DNA of 26,805 nucleotides from Candidatus Micrarchaeota archaeon (GCA_016177165.1 JACOVT010000038.1:1-26805), one strand, 5' to 3'; counted from the first letter of the stretch, positions 1 to 15,233 are shown. Program-made: numbers and translations. Notes: generated by a model not told the origin, from the letters alone.

Positions 1-98
1 GTGCTAACCAGCGTTCCTGCAGGAAAGCAGCCGCCCCCTGCGCGCGCTAGTCCTGTGGCGGCAAACAGCAGTAATACCAACAGGGCGTATTTTCTCAT
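1..98 (-). CDS. 5' part of a secreted Hint/intein-like domain protein (runs off the left edge; absent from the ORF track)
   Basis: Manual translation from ATG at 98 on the minus strand gives MRKYALLVLLLFAATGLARA-GGG-CFPAGTLVS(T), with no stop before position 1. It has a basic N-region, a hydrophobic core and an A-x-A cleavage site, followed by a Hint block-A motif (CFPAGTLV). The start is 4 nt after the TAA of the upstream gene. Confidence 0.8.
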   Translation of the reverse strand, partial: MRKYALLVLLLFAATGLARAGGGCFPAGTLVS

Positions 99-102
99 TG
101 TT

Positions 103-363
103 TTACCCGTGTATTCCGGCTATTATCGCCGCGCCAATAATGATTGCTATTCCAAGCACTGCAGACCCGACCACGTGGCCGAAATACTGCGCCACGGCAA
201 CGTTGCCGCGCCTTATTTCCTTGCCTTCGTCTATGTCTGGAGTCAGCCGGTTTATTATCGCCGGCAGCGCCACTGTTGCTAGCAGCATTGCGACTGCGCC
301 AATCACTATGCCCAGCACGGTAAACGCCGTCGTGAACCCGACCGTGTCGACTATCCCTGTCAT
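103..363 (-). CDS. DUF350-like small membrane protein (86 aa)
   Basis: Two hydrophobic segments flank 'LTPDIDEGKEIRRGNVAVA', which matches the DUF350 pattern (TP..D...EI..GN.AVA). A GGGGTGA SD-like motif precedes the ATG at 363, so this start is preferred over 384. Confidence 0.7.
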   Translation of the reverse strand: MTGIVDTVGFTTAFTVLGIVIGAVAMLLATVALPAIINRLTPDIDEGKEIRRGNVAVAQYFGHVVGSAVLGIAIIIGAAIIAGIHG

Positions 364-413: not shown

Positions 414-3164
414 CTAGCGGTAGCGCAGCAGCGCCCCTATCCCGCCGAAGCCTTGGAGGAACTGTTTCCCTTCAGCAGTTTCGGTAGAAATAATCTCTAT
501 GCTCGCGCCCGAAGATTCGGCGAGCTGGGTCAACTCTTCCATCAGCTCGGTGTCAGACTCCACCGACTGTTTTCCGCCGCAGTGGCAGCGGTAATCGCTA
601 TCGATTTCCTTGACCACACTCTCCACGATTTTGCCACAGTTGTTGCACTTTAACAGCAGCTTGCGCATCGCCAGCTCCTCCGAAAGCAATAGAATGTCAG
701 CCTTCCGCAACTCGAGCGCTTTGCGCGTCTCTTCCTCGCCGTAGCAGGCCAGCCCGCTCGTCACGACCTCCTTCAGGAAGCGGTTGACGAGGTCCCGCTC
801 TTTGGTTATTTCCATCTTTTCAATGACCTCATCGGCGTGCTCCACCAATTCCTTGATGCCCGTCTCATCAGTATAGCCGGTGTCGACCGTCCCGCGTATC
901 TTGTTCTTGACTTCGGTCTGGAGGTACTCGCCGTTGATGAAGTCGTACTTTGTCGGGCCCGACCCGCCCGCAATGATGGCCTTGATTTTCTTGTCGGAGA
1001 ACACACCATTGCACGCATCGCCAATTCTCTTGAAGAACTCGTGCACGGCTATCTCGTGAAGCCGCTGGAAACGCATAGCACTATTGTGAAGCATGAATCC
1101 GTTTGCCACGTATGACTCTTGCCTTGGTACGTTCAGGTCGCAGAACAGGATTCCATCGGGCTCGATTTTTTGCTTTTCCACCACATATGATGGTATCAGG
1201 TCTGAATCTAGTACTTGCCTGAGGAACAGGACAATCTCTTTGCATTCGGCTGACTTTTGCGGGTCTGTTTTTTCAAGCACGCGCTGCCAGTTCTCGAACT
1301 CCCTTAAGATGACCCGTTTGAACACCTTGCGCCCCATCGAGCGCTCGTTCCTGAAGAAATTGTTGCCAGTCCGGAACGAGCGGGTGTTGAGGCCCACCTG
1401 CCTAGCCAGCCTTAGCACGTGGCTGCCGCTCATTGGAATCTGGTCTATCCGCGAAGCCTCTTCACCCCTTCGCCTAATTTTACCAAACTTTTCGCGGCTC
1501 GTAAATCCGACAAATTTTATGAAATTGTTCAAGGAATCTTCATCGTTTATCTCAAGGCTGTATTGGAGTGAAGCGCTTTTGACTTTCCAGTTTGGCGGCG
1601 AGATCTTTTCCCTGAAGGAGGTTACGATGCCGAGCCTCAACAGCATCATCCTGAGCTGTTCCATTAGTTTCTTGCTGGTCGTGGTTATGCCTATCCTTCC
1701 AGAGCGTGATTGCACGTAACCTTCCGCGTCGAACAAGCCACGCGCAAACGCTGCAACAATGCTGTTTGGGGACCGCATTGCTGATACTGGGACTTCTGCG
1801 AGGGCGCTTGGCAGCAGGGCCTCGCCGAACTTGTCACGAATGATACCCGCGAGCTCCTTGCAGCAGATAGTTAGCTGGTAGTAGTTTTTACGCGGGTTAT
1901 GCCTTATCACCCCAACCAAGCCTAATGTTAATGCTATCCTTTTGTACTCGTCGAGAACTTCCTTGCGTTCATCATAGAGGCGGATTCTGTGTTCCTCCAC
2001 GCACCCATCGCCGATGGTGTAGCCTAGCAGCTGGGCAAACTCCTCGTCAAGGTATTCAGGCATTTTGAACGTTTTCGCATTCCTGACGTATCTCTCATGG
2101 AACAGCCCCTTGTCAATGCCGTAAATCTCCAACAGCTTGTTGATCTTTTCAAAGCCGATCTTGCCAATGCCGAGCTCGACCTTTGAAAGCGTTGCCTGCG
2201 CAATGCCGAGTTTCTTTGCCACTTCTCGTTGAAGCAGCCGCTTCTCGACGCGCTGGGTAGCCAGGTGTTTGCGTCCTTCTTCCGTTAGTTCGGGGGTCGG
2301 CAGTATTTTCAGGCCAAGAGGTATTCGTTTGCCTTCAAAGTTTATTCTCTTGACCGCCATGATGGTGTCTCCCTTGGCTAACTCGCCGGCGCTTTTCAAC
2401 CCAAGGCCGCGGCCATCCAGGCTAAAGAACCAGTGTTCAGGGGTTGCCACTATCCTGGCTGACGGGTATTTTGTCCTTATGAGGTATGCACTATCTGATT
2501 TTCTCTTGAACACTTTTGCGCATTCTGCCATTGTTGTCTGATAAGTTGACTGACTAACCGAGCAAACGCGGCCAAGGGGGGCTTTTCCAATCTGGCACAC
2601 CGCACCGTCGCCAAGCTGGATGAGGGAATCGCTTGCAATGCACTGACCGCCGACGTGGTGTTTTCCCGGTATGCCTGACGTCAGTTTTCGCAGTATGTCT
2701 ACCTTCTTGCCGTGGAGAGTGGCGACGATGGCTTCCCGCTTGTCCAACACGAACAGCCCGAACGTCTCCTTGTGTTCGATCATCTCCTCAAACGGCTTGG
2801 TGAAAAACGCGGAGTCGCACCGGTAGATCGAGAGCGGCACGGGCTCTGGAGGGACGAGCATGTACTGCTCTATCTTGCCGTTGATGCTGCCGCAATAAAT
2901 CGCAACGCCGTTCTCCGGGGGTTTGGGCACCCCCTTTATCGCTCCCATAATGCTCTCCAGCGCGGACTGCACGTTCTTGCGGGTCTGCTTGGACTTGATG
3001 TTCATCGCCTGCGACGCCTCTTCTCTCAGGCGGTTGGCCACATCGGCAACGTTGGCTCCAGGTGGAATGAGCACGCTGATCAACTCGGTTCCCTCGCCGC
3101 GGATCGACTGCAGGAAGCGCAGTTTCTTCTTGAACTCGAAGAACTCTTTCGAATCGGTCTGCAT
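414..3164 (-). CDS. prf1: Peptide chain release factor aRF1 (archaeal eRF1), intein-containing precursor (916 aa; about 396 aa after splicing)
   Basis: Motifs: GTELIS, A.NIKSKQTRKNV (NIKS), Y.CD..F, GKHHVGGQ|SAMRF (GGQS once the intein is removed), a C-terminal CxxC...CxC insert and GFGGIGALLRY. Start set at ATG 3164 (MQTDSKEFFEFKK) because 3251 would overlap the divergent pyrH. Confidence 0.95.
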   Translation of the reverse strand: MQTDSKEFFEFKKKLRFLQSIRGEGTELISVLIPPGANVADVANRLREEASQAMNIKSKQTRKNVQSALESIMGAIKGVPKPPENGVAIYCGSINGKIEQYMLVPPEPVPLSIYRCDSAFFTKPFEEMIEHKETFGLFVLDKREAIVATLHGKKVDILRKLTSGIPGKHHVGGQCIASDSLIQLGDGAVCQIGKAPLGRVCSVSQSTYQTTMAECAKVFKRKSDSAYLIRTKYPSARIVATPEHWFFSLDGRGLGLKSAGELAKGDTIMAVKRINFEGKRIPLGLKILPTPELTEEGRKHLATQRVEKRLLQREVAKKLGIAQATLSKVELGIGKIGFEKINKLLEIYGIDKGLFHERYVRNAKTFKMPEYLDEEFAQLLGYTIGDGCVEEHRIRLYDERKEVLDEYKRIALTLGLVGVIRHNPRKNYYQLTICCKELAGIIRDKFGEALLPSALAEVPVSAMRSPNSIVAAFARGLFDAEGYVQSRSGRIGITTTSKKLMEQLRMMLLRLGIVTSFREKISPPNWKVKSASLQYSLEINDEDSLNNFIKFVGFTSREKFGKIRRRGEEASRIDQIPMSGSHVLRLARQVGLNTRSFRTGNNFFRNERSMGRKVFKRVILREFENWQRVLEKTDPQKSAECKEIVLFLRQVLDSDLIPSYVVEKQKIEPDGILFCDLNVPRQESYVANGFMLHNSAMRFQRLHEIAVHEFFKRIGDACNGVFSDKKIKAIIAGGSGPTKYDFINGEYLQTEVKNKIRGTVDTGYTDETGIKELVEHADEVIEKMEITKERDLVNRFLKEVVTSGLACYGEEETRKALELRKADILLLSEELAMRKLLLKCNNCGKIVESVVKEIDSDYRCHCGGKQSVESDTELMEELTQLAESSGASIEIISTETAEGKQFLQGFGGIGALLRYR
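1083..2642 (-). mobile_element. Intein (520 aa) with LAGLIDADG homing endonuclease and XRE-type HTH, inserted between Q and S of GGQ|S
   Basis: Starts at Cys1 (TGC 2642-2640, CIASDSLI). Block B ATPEHWFF, LAGLIDADG motifs LLGYTIGDG and FARGLFDAEG, block F/G FCDLNVP...YVANGFMLHN (AAT 1085-1083), and Ser at +1. Confidence 0.95.
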
Positions 3165-3166
3165 GG

Positions 3167-3196
3167 GTTTTTTAAAGCTGGCGGAGGTTAAAAAAC
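3167..3196. promoter_or_regulatory. Back-to-back TATA elements of the divergent prf1/pyrH promoters, forming a 9-bp inverted repeat
   Basis: GTTTTTTAA (3167-3175), 12 nt, then TTAAAAAAC (3188-3196), inside a 40-bp intergenic gap. Each A/T run lies about 24-30 nt upstream of the start codon it points to. Confidence 0.6.
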
Positions 3197-3204
3197 AGGT
3201 ATAC

Positions 3205-3876
3205 ATGCGCTTGGTTCTGTCGCTGGGCGGCTCGATGGTGTTTGACGGCAAGCCGCGCGTCGACTACATACGCAAAGTCGCCTCGCTGGTCACAGGCCTC
3301 AAAGCCACCGTCGGAGTAATAGTGGGTGGCGGGACGGCCGCGCGCGACTACATAGCCGCAGCAAAGGAGTTCGGCGAGGACAACTTCGACCTCGACTGGC
3401 TGGCCACGACCGTCACTTGGGCCAACGCCCGCTTGTGCGCGCCCGCCTTCGGGGGCAGGTTCTTCTACTCCATAGAGGATGCGGGTGAGTGGCTCCTCTC
3501 TGCGCCGGGCCGCACCGCGCTGCTCGGCGGGACCCACCCAAACCAGACCACTGACACAGTGGGCGCAATGCTTTCCGAGAAGATAGGCGCTGACCGCTGG
3601 GTGAACCTTTCCAACGTGGCGGCAGTGTACGACAAGGACCCCAAGAAGTTCCGGGACGCCCGCAAGTTTTCAACAATGACCCATCAGGAACTCGTCCAGC
3701 TTGCCACGGGGCTGGACAAGCGCGGTCCGGGCGAGAACTTCATAATAGACACGCCCGCCGCGCGCGTGCTCGCCCGTTCGAACATCGAGGCCCACTTCGT
3801 CAACGGCAGCGACCTGTCACAAGTCCGGCTGGCACTGCAGGGCAAGCGCCATGATGGAACGGTTGTCAAGGGCTAG
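3205..3876 (+). CDS. pyrH: Uridylate kinase (archaeal type, 223 aa)
   Basis: MRLVLSLGGS, IVGGGTAARDYI, GGTHPNQTTD, NLSNVAAVYDKDPKKF, HDGTVV. Start at ATG 3205; the longer 2923 ORF runs antisense into prf1. Confidence 0.93.
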   Translation: MRLVLSLGGSMVFDGKPRVDYIRKVASLVTGLKATVGVIVGGGTAARDYIAAAKEFGEDNFDLDWLATTVTWANARLCAPAFGGRFFYSIEDAGEWLLSAPGRTALLGGTHPNQTTDTVGAMLSEKIGADRWVNLSNVAAVYDKDPKKFRDARKFSTMTHQELVQLATGLDKRGPGENFIIDTPAARVLARSNIEAHFVNGSDLSQVRLALQGKRHDGTVVKG

Positions 3877-9101: not shown

Positions 9102-9286
9102 TTCGCCAATATCATTCCGCGCGAGCGCGGTCAGCGCTCCAGAGATTGTTCCGCGAAGACGCAAGCGCTTTTGGTAAAGCTTTTCTCGACCAAGGAGCGT
9201 CATCGGAGAAGCAAAGCTTCTCCGTGATCTCGACGAAGCTCTGCTTCGTCGCAGACGCAAGCGCGACTTCATAGCGGAAAAGGTTT
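9102..9286 (-). ncRNA. tRNA-Trp intron with a box C/D-like guide for 2'-O-methylation of C34
   Basis: Box D CTGA (9134-9131) is preceded by UCUGGAGC, complementary to pre-tRNA GCUCCAGA (9293-9286); the D-5 nucleotide pairs with C34. C'-like GATGACG at 9204-9198 and a degenerate C-like TATGAAG near 9273-9267. Intron-encoded C/D guides in tRNA-Trp are established for euryarchaea. Confidence 0.65.
9204..9251. repeat. Pair of GAAGC-N3-GCTTC hairpins inside the tRNA-Trp intron
   Basis: CGGAGAAGC-AAA-GCTTCTCCG (9204-9224) and CGACGAAGC-TCT-GCTTCGTCG (9231-9251), both perfect 9-bp stems. Confidence 0.85.
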
Positions 9287-9930: not shown

Positions 9931-12900
9931 ATGGGTTGTTCATATATCATCATGGCCGGCTGGACCGCCACCCATTCGAGCCTTGCCTTCGTCAATCTTG
10001 TAGGGCTCCTTCTGGTCTTTTGCCTGATTGTCATCGGCTTTCTCACACCTGTTGGTGTAGCGTCACATGGAAACTCAAAGAAATCCGACCCACCTAATAT
10101 CGGTAAGGACAAGCTCTGTTCATCGCTTCCAGACTCTGGCGGGAAGTGCGATTTTCCTTTGAACAGGTCCGGCAATGTTGGAGGAACCAACCTAAAGCAG
10201 TACAACACCACTGTTCAAACAATCTACGAGTACTTGAGGATCGAGAAGCTGACCCTCAAGAACGGCAAGCCGGACGCGACCATGGAATTCTACGTCAATG
10301 GGAAGCTGAAGCTCTCGTTCAGGGCGAACAGCGCTTCCGCGAACAACTACTGGATTGATGGAAACAAGCTCAAGGTAAGGCAGCAAGTCAAGCTACCCCC
10401 GGGAAACAACCTTCTGGCCGTCAGGGTGGTTGACAACTTCGCCAGCACATCGGCGCAAAAGGATATGGCATACGTTTTCTACCCAAATCACGCCCCAACA
10501 TTGCAAATGGTTACCCCGTCCAACAAAGACTATTGGAGCGGAACCAAAACAATCAAGTGGGATGCCAAGGATATAGACGACGACCCGCTGGCATTCACCG
10601 TGGAATACTCAACAGATGGAAAAACATTCACCACGCTAGCGGCAAACATTGCAGATAGCAGGTACGTCTGGGACACCAAGAGTGTTCCAGACAACGACTC
10701 GTACACGATCAGAGTTGCGGTTTCTGACGGAATGGCCAAGGTCGCCAACTTCACCACGCTTACGGTAGACAACATGCCACCAAAGGTGGCGCTGGCGCTC
10801 GAGCCGCTGCTTTCAGAGTACCTTGTTACCTCACCCCTGCCGGTAGAACACTTTGAGGCCGACCCGCAAGTCAGCGGCAAGCCTTCCGGGATTGCTTCCA
10901 CGTCATGGGACATCGACGGTATGGCCATGCAGGACATGAATATTAGTGACTGGATCGGCAAGCACAAACTAACCCTTACAATAGCAGACCGCGCAGGCAA
11001 CAAGAACTCCGCTTCTGTCGAGTTTGTTGGTATCACTCCTGAAGGCTGCACTACTATTGATTGCGGCGAACAGGCTGCATTGGAAGCCAATTCTAATGGC
11101 AAGATGTTCAAGGGCGCTACTGTGAAAACCACTGCCCAAGAACTGCAGGCTCTCCAAGAGGCCGCATCACAGCAGCCGCACACCCTCCTTCTAAGGTCTG
11201 GAAGCTTTACACCTGGGAAGGGAATAGATGACGCGCTTTCAAAAAAGAACGGAAGCGATGGTTACACATACGCGTACTTAATGTTCAACAAAACAGCTTC
11301 AAGCGCTGACTTAGACTCGCTGCGCTCGTTGGGCGTCAAGCTGCTCAGCTCGCATGACTATTACTCATATTCGGCCCGGATTCCTATGCAGAACATTTCA
11401 AAGATAGCCGGCCTGAACTCGATTTACTGGATGGGATACCTGCCAGCCGACTACAAGCTAGACCCAGTTCTGCAGAAAGCCCTAGACCCGAACAAGACTT
11501 TCGACGATGCCACGAATGAGAACTACAAGCTGTTTGAGGACTATCTCAAAGCAAACGGCCTATCGCTCGACAACATTACGGTATCGGTTAGCACATACCA
11601 GCTCGACCTCTCTGGCGACTTTGGCGAGAAGCTCGGGCAGGCGGGCCTTACCGGCGAACACGAGGATGAAACTCTGGCCGTATTCTATGGCACTGCGAGC
11701 ATTGATGCAGCCAAAAAGATGGCTGGCCTCGGGTTTGTAAACTACGTTAATGTTGTTCTGGGCGGGTCAACGGCGTTGCTCGAAAGCTCGCCAACGATCG
11801 GAGCGGACTATCTTAGCTTCGTCAACGGTCAGATAATGAACGGCGCAGGTGTGCGCGTCGGCATAATAGACAGCGGCTATGACAATGATCACCCATGGCT
11901 GCCGAATTATGGTTCCTGCAGGAACTTCTTGGACAACAATAACGACTGTTCTGACACCCACGGCCATGGAAATTACGTTGCAGGCATCCTGCTGGGACAG
12001 GACGCTAGGCATAGAGGGATAGCCTATGGTGTAACTGGCCCGAAAATAGCCAAGGTGACAGACTCGAGCGGAAACTTCAATGATGCGACAGTGCTTTCTG
12101 CAATGGACTGGATGGCCCAAGACCCGGTTCCGAGCGTGGTGAGCGTTAGTCTTGCAGATCCCATGTTGAAGTGCACTGGCACGGACGACCTAAGCAGACG
12201 GTTGGACAGCAAGGTGTCACAAAACGGCCAAGTGTATGTTGTTGCTGCCGGAAACAACGGCAATATTGGCGCTCAAAGGGTAGGCATGCCGGGGTGTGCC
12301 AAGAACGCAATAACAGTTGGAGCCACCACTGACTACGACACAACCGACTCGGTATGGATGGAAAGCCAACGGGGAAGCAGCTATGGGCCTACAGGGGATG
12401 GAAGGATAAAGCCAGACCTGGTGGCTCCGGGCTGCCTGATTGAGTCGGCGTGGATGAACGGCGGGTCATACGCTGATTGCGGGACCAGCGCCGCCGCGCC
12501 CCACGTTTCTGGCGTGGTGGCAACGCTATTGCAGCACTACGACTGGCTGCACGGGTACCCGGAGCTTGTCAAAGCGCTGCTAATGGCGACCTCAATAAAC
12601 AGTCAATCATGGCCCATTAACAAGTACGGGGCTGGGAAAGTCGACGCGCTGGCAGCAAACTGGTTGTTTGACTACCAGTCTGGTTACAGGTGGAAAACGG
12701 GCTACGGCACGTTTACCGACACTGACCATTGGCACCACTTGGATTTAGTAGTACCATCGGACGCCGCCAAGCTGGTCATTTACCTCACTTGGATGGAACC
12801 GCCCGCGGACGCCGCAAGCGACCATGCCGTGCTGAACAACCTCGACTTGTACTTGGACAGGGAACCATTGCAGGATTCTGGCAACGGTTATGATTGGGAT

Positions 12901-14313
12901 TGGAAATCAGAGTCGTTCAAAGACAATGTGGAGCGGATAATAGTCAATTCCCCCAGTTCCGGCAATTACCAGATAAAGATATTCCCTGTCTCTCTGGATG
13001 TCGGCAGGGCGCCTACCCAGAAGTATGCGGTGGCGTACATGATCGTGAGGGGTCCCACATCACCTTCCCTCGATGTCGGCGTGGACGCGCCCAGCGTGGT
13101 GAATGCTGGCCAATCGTTCACTTTCAAGGCCACGCTTGCCCCGGCGTCATACATGGCATCAGGGGTATACTCTAAGATAACAGTGCCGCAGGATGTTTTG
13201 ATACAGTCAGCCACTACCACGCGCAAGGATGGCACTGTGCGTCACTATGACGGCGCTGCCGGAGTCAACCTTGGAAACATACTATTCTATACTGGTTACG
13301 AACGTACTGTAACATGGTCGTTGAGCGCCAGCTCGTATGGCCAAAAGACCATCAGCTTGGATGTCTGCGGTAGCAACTCTGACTGCCGCGTTGTTGAAAC
13401 AACCGTGAGGGTGAACGCGCCGCCGGCAGCCGGTTTTACGTTCTCTCCAGCCAGCCCGACCACAGCAGACTCTGTACTATTTACAGACACTTCAACAGAC
13501 GACGCTGGCGTGGCATCTTGGAGCTGGAGCTTCGGGGACGGCTCGTCGTCAAGCGAGCGCAACCCATTCCACAGGTACGCGAGCGCAGGCGCCTATTCGG
13601 TAACGCTGACAGTAACGGATGGGAGCGGCGCCACAAGCACCAAAAGCACCCAGATTTCCGTTTCCGACCCCGTAACGCCGCCACCTCCGCCACCAGAAAC
13701 ACTTCTTTCAGAAGACTTTGAGGATGGAAACGCGAACGGGTGGAACTCCCTATCCGGCTCGATGAGTGTCATTGCCGGAAACCTTGATGGTTCTGGCAGC
13801 TATGTCCTAAAGGTCACTTCGGATGGAGACACGCCTTCCGGCGTCCTATACTCCGGCGGCACTGGTTGGCTGAACTATAATATTGACGTGCAGTTTAGGG
13901 AGATAGAAACCAACGATCCGGGCGGCGACCCTTTGGGATCCGACCCCAACACTTATGTCAATGTTTACTTCTACCAACAGTCGGCCTCAAATGCAAACAA
14001 TGGGTATAAGCTGCACATTCGAGGAAGGCAAGGAACCACTTCTCTCTTTAAGGTAGTAAATGGGGCTGATACTCAACTTATTACGACCTGTGGCTCGTTC
14101 GACCAGAATCAGCTGCGAAAGATAAAAATCAAGACAACACCCGCGGCAATAGAATACGTGATTACAGACCATAATGGAAACAGTTGTTACAGCGGACTTC
14201 CAATCGAAGACTCCACATTCAGGAGTGGTGCGGTTGGTGTTGCCGCCCATACGGGGGTTGCCGGGACTTATGTCACGACATTGTTTGACAACATTGTTGT
14301 CAAACCCAACTAG
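9931..14313 (+). CDS. Large secreted or membrane-anchored S8 (subtilisin, KP-43-like) serine protease with Ig-like, PKD and C-terminal lectin-like domains (1460 aa)
   Basis: N-terminal hydrophobic segment; triad VGIIDSG, DTHGHGNYVAG and CGTSAAAPHVSG; AAGN, CAKNAITVGA and GRIKPDLVAPG; a KP-43-like beta-barrel (LTW...NNLDL...DNVERI); PKD (WSWSFGDG...HRYASAGAYSVTLTVTD); a Pro linker; and a terminal LLSEDFEDG..GW beta-sandwich. The exact start (9931 or 9952) is uncertain. Confidence 0.9.
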   Translation: MGCSYIIMAGWTATHSSLAFVNLVGLLLVFCLIVIGFLTPVGVASHGNSKKSDPPNIGKDKLCSSLPDSGGKCDFPLNRSGNVGGTNLKQYNTTVQTIYEYLRIEKLTLKNGKPDATMEFYVNGKLKLSFRANSASANNYWIDGNKLKVRQQVKLPPGNNLLAVRVVDNFASTSAQKDMAYVFYPNHAPTLQMVTPSNKDYWSGTKTIKWDAKDIDDDPLAFTVEYSTDGKTFTTLAANIADSRYVWDTKSVPDNDSYTIRVAVSDGMAKVANFTTLTVDNMPPKVALALEPLLSEYLVTSPLPVEHFEADPQVSGKPSGIASTSWDIDGMAMQDMNISDWIGKHKLTLTIADRAGNKNSASVEFVGITPEGCTTIDCGEQAALEANSNGKMFKGATVKTTAQELQALQEAASQQPHTLLLRSGSFTPGKGIDDALSKKNGSDGYTYAYLMFNKTASSADLDSLRSLGVKLLSSHDYYSYSARIPMQNISKIAGLNSIYWMGYLPADYKLDPVLQKALDPNKTFDDATNENYKLFEDYLKANGLSLDNITVSVSTYQLDLSGDFGEKLGQAGLTGEHEDETLAVFYGTASIDAAKKMAGLGFVNYVNVVLGGSTALLESSPTIGADYLSFVNGQIMNGAGVRVGIIDSGYDNDHPWLPNYGSCRNFLDNNNDCSDTHGHGNYVAGILLGQDARHRGIAYGVTGPKIAKVTDSSGNFNDATVLSAMDWMAQDPVPSVVSVSLADPMLKCTGTDDLSRRLDSKVSQNGQVYVVAAGNNGNIGAQRVGMPGCAKNAITVGATTDYDTTDSVWMESQRGSSYGPTGDGRIKPDLVAPGCLIESAWMNGGSYADCGTSAAAPHVSGVVATLLQHYDWLHGYPELVKALLMATSINSQSWPINKYGAGKVDALAANWLFDYQSGYRWKTGYGTFTDTDHWHHLDLVVPSDAAKLVIYLTWMEPPADAASDHAVLNNLDLYLDREPLQDSGNGYDWDWKSESFKDNVERIIVNSPSSGNYQIKIFPVSLDVGRAPTQKYAVAYMIVRGPTSPSLDVGVDAPSVVNAGQSFTFKATLAPASYMASGVYSKITVPQDVLIQSATTTRKDGTVRHYDGAAGVNLGNILFYTGYERTVTWSLSASSYGQKTISLDVCGSNSDCRVVETTVRVNAPPAAGFTFSPASPTTADSVLFTDTSTDDAGVASWSWSFGDGSSSSERNPFHRYASAGAYSVTLTVTDGSGATSTKSTQISVSDPVTPPPPPPETLLSEDFEDGNANGWNSLSGSMSVIAGNLDGSGSYVLKVTSDGDTPSGVLYSGGTGWLNYNIDVQFREIETNDPGGDPLGSDPNTYVNVYFYQQSASNANNGYKLHIRGRQGTTSLFKVVNGADTQLITTCGSFDQNQLRKIKIKTTPAAIEYVITDHNGNSCYSGLPIEDSTFRSGAVGVAAHTGVAGTYVTTLFDNIVVKPN

Positions 14314-15089: not shown

Positions 15090-15233
15090 TGGCGGGCCTG
15101 GAGGGATTCGAACCCCCGACCACCGGCTCTCTCCAGTTTTCCCAGGTTTTTCCCGACTTGCGAGCGCAAGCGAGCGACACCGCGGAAAAAGCTGTAGGAC
15201 GCCGCTGCTCTATCCAGGCTGAGCTACAGGCCC
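15090..15233 (-). tRNA. trnR: tRNA-Arg(CCT), CCA-encoded, with a 66-nt intron at 37/38 (15129-15194); atypical G32 and G27-G43
   Basis: GGGCCTG/CAGGCCC acceptor, D-arm GCTC-AGCCTGGATA-GAGC, anticodon CCT (15198-15196), T-arm GGGGG-TTCGAAT-CCCTC, GCCA end, BHB-like bulges TA|C and AG|A. Confidence 0.85.

Follow-up and report, generated by a model that had tools for sequence, protein, structure and literature searches.

Bacterial intein-like (BIL) domains were described in 2003, and their purpose has been an open question since. To our knowledge, the BUBL loci of Tetrahymena are the only described tandem arrays of BIL-type Hint domains. In these eukaryotic, cytoplasmic systems, the BIL domains alternate with ubiquitin-like domains. 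We also know of no described Tim44-like or DUF350 protein that carries a Hint domain. By definition, BIL domains have no +1 nucleophile and mostly perform N- and C-terminal cleavage, and the A-type domains keep the terminal His-Asn (PMC7664689 and PMC7765530, and Amitai 2003, Dassa 2004, and Aranko 2013 as cited there). The Tetrahymena BIL2 domain reportedly splices via an isopeptide bond to the ε-amine of Lys (PMC8616854). DUF350/YjfL proteins are reported from envelope-stress (PSP-associated) operons, a DUF350 context for which the same source mentions neither Tim44 nor Hint (PMC11237479).

Herein, we describe an archaeal gene that encodes four BIL-like Hint units head to tail between a predicted signal peptide and a Tim44-like domain. 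The stretch of DNA analyzed (the window, 26,805 nucleotides) is the entire contig C105 of an 847-kb, 108-contig, 79%-complete genome of a Candidatus Micrarchaeota archaeon (GCA_016177165.1). A preliminary description of the window had proposed an exported N-terminus followed by three glycines and a Cys-initiated Hint block A, running off the contig edge. Translation of window positions 98-1 on the minus strand bore this out, giving MRKYALLVLLLFAATGLARAGGGCFPAGTLVS plus 2 bases of the next codon, stop-free and open at the contig end. On this strand, the coding sequence starts with ATG at 98-96; the three Gly codons occupy 38-30, and the Cys24 codon occupies 29-27. The features at this end of the window are:

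1 to 98, minus strand: first 32 codons (plus 2 nt) of the Hint-array/Tim44-like membrane protein gene, based on a 14-nt in-frame overlap with contig C59 and on matching homolog N-termini
39 to 98, minus strand: predicted signal peptide, residues 1-20 (MRKY, hydrophobic core, ARA), based on composition and also seen in more than 100 homologs
30 to 44, minus strand: R-A-G-G-G, a conserved basic and oligo-Gly element ahead of Cys1 that parallels the K-G(1-3) ahead of Hints 2-4
1 to 29, minus strand: Cys1 (29-27) and block A (CFPAGTLVS) of the first Hint unit, which covers joined-protein residues 24-156, based on translation and the Hint-unit consensus
103 to 363, minus strand: DUF350 (YjfL-type) small membrane protein of 86 aa with its ATG at 363, based on a Pfam DUF350 score of 29.8 bits (cutoff 26)
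414 to 3251, minus strand: aRF1 with a LAGLIDADG/HTH intein at GGQ (intein at about 1083-2642), based on domain matches

The signal peptide was called manually from the composition of the N-terminus: MRKY forms the n-region, the hydrophobic core comprises 13 residues, and positions -3 and -1 are small. Two predicted cleavage sites are compatible with this composition, one after ...GLA, which would leave RAGGG, and one after ...ARA, which would leave GGG. More than 100 homologs have a signal peptide that ends in (A)R(A)GGG(G) and is followed immediately by Cys-[F/L]-x-x-G-T. Since so many homologs start in the same way, the signal peptide-GGG-Cys pattern is not due to chance.

The gene continues on another contig of the same assembly. 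Window positions 1-14 match the final 14 bases of C59 exactly, on the same strand and in frame, and the remainder of the gene is a 5'-open ORF at G000:C59:9739-12096 (minus strand), which starts TLVSTPSGEN... and encodes the remaining 786 residues. The overlapping 14-mer occurs only at these two contig ends in the genome, and 17 contig pairs of the assembly have exact terminal overlaps of 10-29 nt. Based on these two results, terminal overlaps mark assembly-graph neighbors. The joined Hint unit 1 has 133 residues, compared with a family median of 132, and shows the usual consensus. The same N-terminus was found in an Aenigmarchaeota homolog, with ...FARAGGG followed by CFLPGTEVSTPTG. Logan contigs from two independent groundwater-metagenome runs overlap the window without mismatch and pass position 1 by 766 and 533 nt, respectively; they show that the sequence continues, not that C59 is the continuation. 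The gene is split by an assembly break between C105 and C59, and the joined product has 814 residues. Extending the contig leftward, as the preliminary description had advised, gave no early stop, and both block B (TTEHP, residues 87-91) and the terminal His-Asn (residues 155-156) are present on C59. An overlap of just 14 nt in a gene of repeated domains could in principle mislead, and repeat-associated assembly breaks can collapse copies. However, the genome holds a single family copy and no other 5'-truncated member, the 14-mer is unique to the two ends, unit 1 is normal in length and consensus, homologs share both the N-terminus and the DUF350 neighbor, and the metagenome contigs cross position 1. 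We consider it very improbable that the two pieces are different genes or that further Hint copies lie between them. The split Hint gene links two contigs of this genome. The assembly could be scaffolded further from its end overlaps, for example at C45/C46, C5/C29, C5/C44, C9/C75, C14/C108, and C57/C91.

The joined protein consists of a signal peptide, R-A-G-G-G (residues 19-23), four tandem Hints of about 133 residues, a Gly/Ser linker, one TM helix, and a Tim44-like domain. In each Hint unit, the Cys follows Gly and the unit ends in VHN. The units are located in the joined protein as follows:

Residues 24-156: Hint unit 1, block B TTEHP
Residues 159-290: Hint unit 2, block B TGEHP
Residues 295-428: Hint unit 3, block B TAEHP
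Residues 432-563: Hint unit 4, block B TGEHP

The junctions between the Hints consist only of K-G, K-G-G-G, and K-G-G, respectively (2-4 residues). C-terminal to the last His-Asn, the protein continues with K-G-G-S, the Gly/Ser linker, the TM helix, a basic stretch (RVMRKGR), and the Tim44-like domain. Pfam gave PT-HINT at 1.5e-48 over four stretches and Tim44 at 7e-12, both above threshold, and the C-terminal part alone matched Tim44 at 8e-13 (49 bits vs a threshold of 29.6). Most bacterial members carry a pair of Tim44-like domains; the present protein carries one. AlphaFold2 modeling of the C59-encoded part (786 residues) gave a mean pLDDT of 84 and a pTM of 0.35. The separate domains were confident, and confidence was low at the K-Gly junctions and in the linker; in the model, a helix spans 558-583 and an alpha/beta domain spans 598-781. 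Charge distribution and the positive-inside rule suggest a type-I membrane protein with the Hint array outside and the Tim44-like domain in the cytoplasm.

Between the last Hint and the TM helix, the archaeal-like subgroup retains S-S-S-C-K-x-x-E-C-S, in which the two Cys are separated by five residues (joined-protein residues 576-582, on C59, and also in homolog P0130) and which could be a disulfide or metal site. Three Aenigmarchaeota proteins (P0006, P0007, and P0009) have an extra exported region of about 250 residues here, without a Pfam match, which is missing in this protein.

The Hint units most closely resemble a BIL domain. A profile of 131 units searched against the PDB returned 2LWY, the C. 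thermocellum bacterial intein-like domain, first at 7e-25, followed by RecA mini-inteins at about 1e-16, Tetrahymena BIL2 at about 2e-15, and Hedgehog at about 8e-8. The AlphaFold2 model of Hint 2 had a pLDDT of 95.2 and a pTM of 0.88. With this model, Foldseek gave 2LWY as the best match (TM 0.85, 30% identity), and other matches included mini-inteins up to TM 0.91, BIL2 at 0.87, and Hedgehog at 0.82-0.85. The NCBIfam intein N- and C-terminal models also match the units. A Hedgehog-type Hog assignment was rejected: every unit ends in His-Asn, passes straight into the next unit or the linker, and lacks a recognition region. The preliminary description had pointed to block F/G, with His-Asn followed by Cys, Ser, or Thr, and to an endonuclease as features to look for. 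The His-Asn was found in all four units, but the residue after it is Lys in each, not Cys, Ser, or Thr. The units, at about 133 aa, contain neither an endonuclease nor a remnant of one.

Conservation across the family was assessed by a census with an HMM built from Hint cores only, the termini being unused for selection. The census comprised 463 units in 120 proteins. Gly-Cys was present at the N-end of 457 units, and the 6 exceptions were truncated gene calls or split hits. His-Asn was present at the C-end of 461 units, and the next residue was Lys in 461 of 461. In block B, Thr was conserved at 99.6% and His at 100%, while mean identity between units was about 36-38%. Although they are external to the fold, the flanking Gly(-1) and Lys-Gly(+1,+2) are as fixed as the catalytic residues. 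This degree of conservation bears on the possibility that the Hints do not process at all and serve as a stable, beads-on-a-string binding or spacer ectodomain. Four independent, well-folded domains on flexible links, as predicted here, would suit such a role, as would the old, separately conserved lineages of positions 1, 2, and 3/4 in bacterial members. However, the acyl-shift and Asn-cyclization residues are essentially invariant over 463 units with about 36% overall identity, and Gly(-1) and Lys(+1) are also invariant although they are outside the fold and surface positions otherwise vary freely. A nonprocessing array is in our view quite improbable.

The order of the units was compared in 93 four-unit proteins. 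In 342 of 368 comparisons, the nearest unit of another protein was one from the same position in the array, and identity was 55% between same-position units vs 36% within a protein. In a maximum-likelihood tree, positions 1, 2, and 3/4 of bacterial members fell into well-supported clades. The tree also indicated duplication or homogenization within genes in the subgroup closest to this archaeon, where the four units of one Aenigmarchaeota protein formed a single clade. The four units of the present protein fell on long, unresolved branches. Since units have been duplicated or homogenized within genes, copy number is dynamic in the archaeal-like subgroup. The same result ruled out a fixed order everywhere.

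A search of 5.8 billion proteins found at least 931 homologs of the same architecture, and a scan of species genomes found at least 176 carrier species, mostly bacteria. The carrier groups include Verrucomicrobiota, Planctomycetota, Desulfobacterota/Syntrophales, Lentisphaerae, Elusimicrobiota, Nitrospirota, Acidobacteria, and Coxiellaceae; the cultured Legionella massiliensis LegA and one Micrarchaeia archaeon also carry the gene. Family members have 1-6 Hint units in direct succession at a single, fixed site. The nearest relatives of this protein are from Aenigmarchaeota, at 45% identity. We searched 40 related archaeal genomes, which share the order, class, or domain of this archaeon; no orthologue was found in any of them, and only intein-level matches were obtained. 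This observation indicates that the module is sporadic in this lineage and leaves vertical inheritance there unsupported. In the Micrarchaeia relative (L088:2923-5793, 956 aa, 40% identity), the first junction reads HNKG/S, and its second unit may have Ser1 in place of Cys1 or may be decaying.

Relatives without Hints were obtained with the part of the protein that follows the array. A word-based search with the linker/TM/Tim44 part returned only gene fragments on contigs of about 1 kb and no Hint-less relatives. An exhaustive search with the same part gave 618 representatives with 0, 1, 2, 3, or 4 Hints. Some of these are complete proteins of 230-300 residues that have no Hint at all; their signal peptide, which ends ...ARAGGG.., leads into about 10 Gly-rich residues, then the TM helix and the Tim44-like domain. 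The preliminary description had called for homologs that lack the insert at ARAGGG, and these proteins (signal peptide ...ARAGGGG..., Gly-rich tail, TM, Tim44-like) are of that kind. The present protein with its Hints deleted would read ...ARAGGG/KG/KGGG/KGG/KGGS...TM, with slashes at the deletion points. The Hint-less relatives are distant (about 30% identity, with a single Tim44-like domain) and are not alleles of this gene. Based on their match to the protein with its Hints deleted, the Hints sit in an exported oligo-Gly tail that also occurs alone. Several of the Hint-less tails have no Lys or Arg past the first Arg, so the invariant Lys belongs to the Hint and not to the tail.

These results suggest that the units are A-type BIL-like modules, putatively self-processing, and neither canonical inteins nor polymorphic toxins; the resemblance of the Hint-less relatives to this protein minus its Hints supports this assignment. 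The preliminary description had offered, as one of two readings, that an intein has entered the Gly-rich N-terminus of an exported protein. The Gly-rich exported site was supported by the Hint-less relatives, but the true intein was not: Lys occupies +1 in 461 of 461 units, an endonuclease is missing, and BIL domains are the best matches in sequence and fold. Canonical (class 1) mini-inteins, as selfish elements that happen to occupy an exported protein, would explain the HINT fold, Cys1, TxxH, and His-Asn, the NCBIfam intein matches, the existence of Hint-less relatives, and the within-gene duplication of units in the subgroup nearest this protein. They would not be expected to have Lys and never Cys, Ser, or Thr at +1, to lack any endonuclease or remnant, to match BIL domains and Pfam PT-HINT better than intein profiles, or to keep a fixed order in bacterial arrays. 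We regard this explanation as highly doubtful.

The neighboring genes provide further context. The DUF350 stop codon is 4 nt ahead of the Hint gene ATG on the same strand, and the two genes are at least co-oriented and may be co-transcribed. A DUF350-like ORF is also directly upstream in Aenigmarchaeota, Planctomycetota, and Deltaproteobacteria loci, and DUF350 is upstream in at least 64 of 78 named loci. Beside the distant Hint-less relatives, no DUF350 was called in the 3 loci sampled, where one 91-aa upstream ORF is dissimilar to DUF350. In a deltaproteobacterial relative, a LemA gene (L005:4569-5126) lies two genes upstream of the DUF350-like/Hint-Tim44 pair; no LemA gene was found in this window. 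The preliminary description was also correct in counting two Hint domains within about 3 kb, since aRF1 (414-3251, minus strand) has a LAGLIDADG intein at its GGQ motif. This intein sits exactly after GGQ, with the junctions GGQ/C ... HN/S. It is a canonical intein, separate from the Hint/DUF350 module, and provides an internal contrast 1 kb from the array.

Downstream of the Hint gene on C59 is TruD, and no toxin or immunity gene was found at the locus. This arrangement is relevant to public annotation of the relatives, which would make the units pre-toxin HINT domains of a polymorphic toxin. PT-HINT is indeed the top Pfam family, and several NCBI homolog names say so. However, the Hints are followed by a TM helix and a Tim44-like domain and not by a toxin domain, no N-terminal RHS, filament, or secretion domain is present, and the adjacent genes are TruD and DUF350 instead of an immunity gene. 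A polymorphic toxin is in our judgment extremely improbable. The other window genes are archaeal housekeeping genes (Dph2, TrmB, subtilase, PurB, and PurA). The subtilase (Peptidase_S8) has PKD domains and 1460 residues (window 9931-14313, plus strand) and is probably a secreted or surface protease. ARAGORN found no tRNA in the window, while the preliminary description had placed intron-containing tRNA-Trp and tRNA-Arg at 9102-9286 and 15090-15233, respectively; large or atypical introns may defeat ARAGORN at these positions.

All four units contain the complete residue set for an N-S acyl shift (Cys1 and block B) and for Asn cyclization (His-Asn). The Hints probably, though far from certainly, process and remove themselves outside the membrane. 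In the proposed mechanism, the Hint array would be exported while the Tim44-like domain would stay cytoplasmic. At each Hint, an N-S acyl shift at Gly/Cys would generate a glycyl thioester outside the membrane, and Asn cyclization would cut at Asn/Lys. Once the Hints were gone, a short basic/oligo-Gly tail would be left on a TM-Tim44-like protein, which is the form that the Hint-less relatives encode directly. The amine of the +1 Lys could take over the thioester, which would lead to Lys-dependent rejoining as in Tetrahymena BIL2; cutting without rejoining would be the alternative. The second reading of the preliminary description, an extracytoplasmic module that activates only a triglycine as a thioester, would be consistent with the conserved Gly/Cys junction and the intact catalytic residues. 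Each of the two readings captures part of the picture; neither could include the four tandem Hints, the C-terminal TM helix and Tim44-like domain, or the conserved pairing with the upstream DUF350 gene, which lie beyond the sequence on which they were based.

Based on its conservation, the invariant +1 Lys most likely takes part in the chemistry. Neither plain cleavage nor aminolysis by an α-amine explains this invariance, which suggests that the Lys amine captures the thioester. By analogy with BIL2, we tentatively raise the possibility that the +1 Lys is the splice nucleophile, its ε-amine taking up the glycyl thioester before Asn cyclization releases each exported Hint, that the array excises with the oligo-Gly pieces joined by isopeptide bonds, and that the host keeps this reaction as a maturation or sensing step of the DUF350/Tim44-like module. 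Conserved catalytic residues would also be expected of selfish excising elements and are thus no proof of a benefit to the host. From the occurrence of DUF350/YjfL in envelope-stress operons (PMC11237479), we would guess that the mature DUF350/Tim44-like pair has a role in membrane or envelope homeostasis.

The same chemistry could instead serve conjugation or anchoring. Here, instead of reacting intramolecularly, the glycyl thioesters would be handed to an external acceptor; candidates are a lipid head-group, an amine of the cell wall or S-layer, and a Lys on a second copy of the protein. As a result, upstream Hint-K-Gly(n) fragments would be covalently attached or polymerized, comparable to Hedgehog-cholesterol and to the ubiquitin-like domains of Tetrahymena BUBL. 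The Hedgehog-like site GG/CF, the structural match to the Hedgehog Hint (TM 0.82-0.85), the conjugation of BIL2 to Lys of other proteins (PMC8616854), and the presence of a thioester-forming end and a Lys on every unit are compatible with this reading. However, only 3-5 residues precede Hint 1, leaving nothing substantial to deliver; there is no sterol- or adduct-recognition region and no ubiquitin-like cargo between units; and the Hint-less relatives point to a protein freed of its Hints as the functional product. We consider conjugation, the main competing explanation, unlikely, and self-removal of the Hints outside the membrane remains our preferred reading.

For this conserved architecture with BIL-type, putatively autoprocessing Hint units, we found no description in the literature. 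A literature search returned no paper joining Tim44 with Hint domains, none on prokaryotic Tim44-like domains of this kind, and no description of the family. Where homologs are named, the names are generic ("TIM44-like domain-containing" and "polymorphic toxin-type HINT domain-containing"). Protein-atlas clusters with Tim44 and PT-HINT carry the automatic name "DNA polymerase II large subunit family protein", an error that stems from intein similarity. Our findings correct the public labels of the relatives, both polymorphic-toxin HINT and "DNA polymerase II large subunit". New in this instance are the split gene, the combination of four Hints with but one Tim44-like domain, the small archaeal genome, and relatives without the module. 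The family is a natural test case for the purpose of BIL domains, with up to six intact units, almost nothing between them, and fixed Gly and Lys-Gly flanks. Hint-less relatives for comparison and a cultured carrier, Legionella massiliensis LegA, are further assets. If the Lys does rejoin the flanks, this would be a new prokaryotic splicing chemistry acting outside the cytoplasm, and it could serve as a ligation tool without a Cys, Ser, or Thr scar.

Compared with known systems, the protein combines features that have been described separately. It is like Tim44/TimA-type and DUF350 (YjfL) proteins in that its C-terminal domain and its partner pass the respective Pfam thresholds. With Hedgehog Hog, it shares the G-G/C-F cleavage-site motif and, putatively here, the extracytoplasmic setting and a thioester on the Gly carboxyl. 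Hog, however, does not end in His-Asn, includes a region for sterol recognition, and releases a large N-terminal signaling domain, none of which applies here. Canonical mini-inteins (Npu/Ssp DnaB and Mtu RecA) resemble the units in fold (TM up to 0.91), size, Cys1/TxxH/HN, and the existence of element-free relatives. Unlike these, the present units have Lys in place of the +1 nucleophile, occupy an exported host instead of a cytoplasmic nucleic-acid enzyme, are arranged in tandem, and have no homing endonuclease.

The closest counterparts are BIL-type. Tetrahymena BUBL also has tandem BIL-type Hints, and its BIL2 domain (PDB 6Y75/6TMM) is a structural match at TM 0.87. In contrast to BUBL, there is no ubiquitin-like cargo here but just K-Gly(n), and the array is predicted to be exported and tethered to a TM/Tim44-like protein. 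With A-type BIL/PT-HINT (PF07591), the units share the HINT fold, Cys1, block B TxxH, the terminal His-Asn, the lack of a +1 Cys, Ser, or Thr, and exported hosts. Known BIL domains are single and occur in hypervariable regions of non-conserved secreted bacterial proteins, whereas these units are in tandem at a fixed site of a conserved membrane family. They further differ from known BIL domains in their invariant Gly(-1) and Lys-Gly(+1,+2), in having almost no extein between them, in the existence of Hint-less relatives, and in including archaeal as well as bacterial members.
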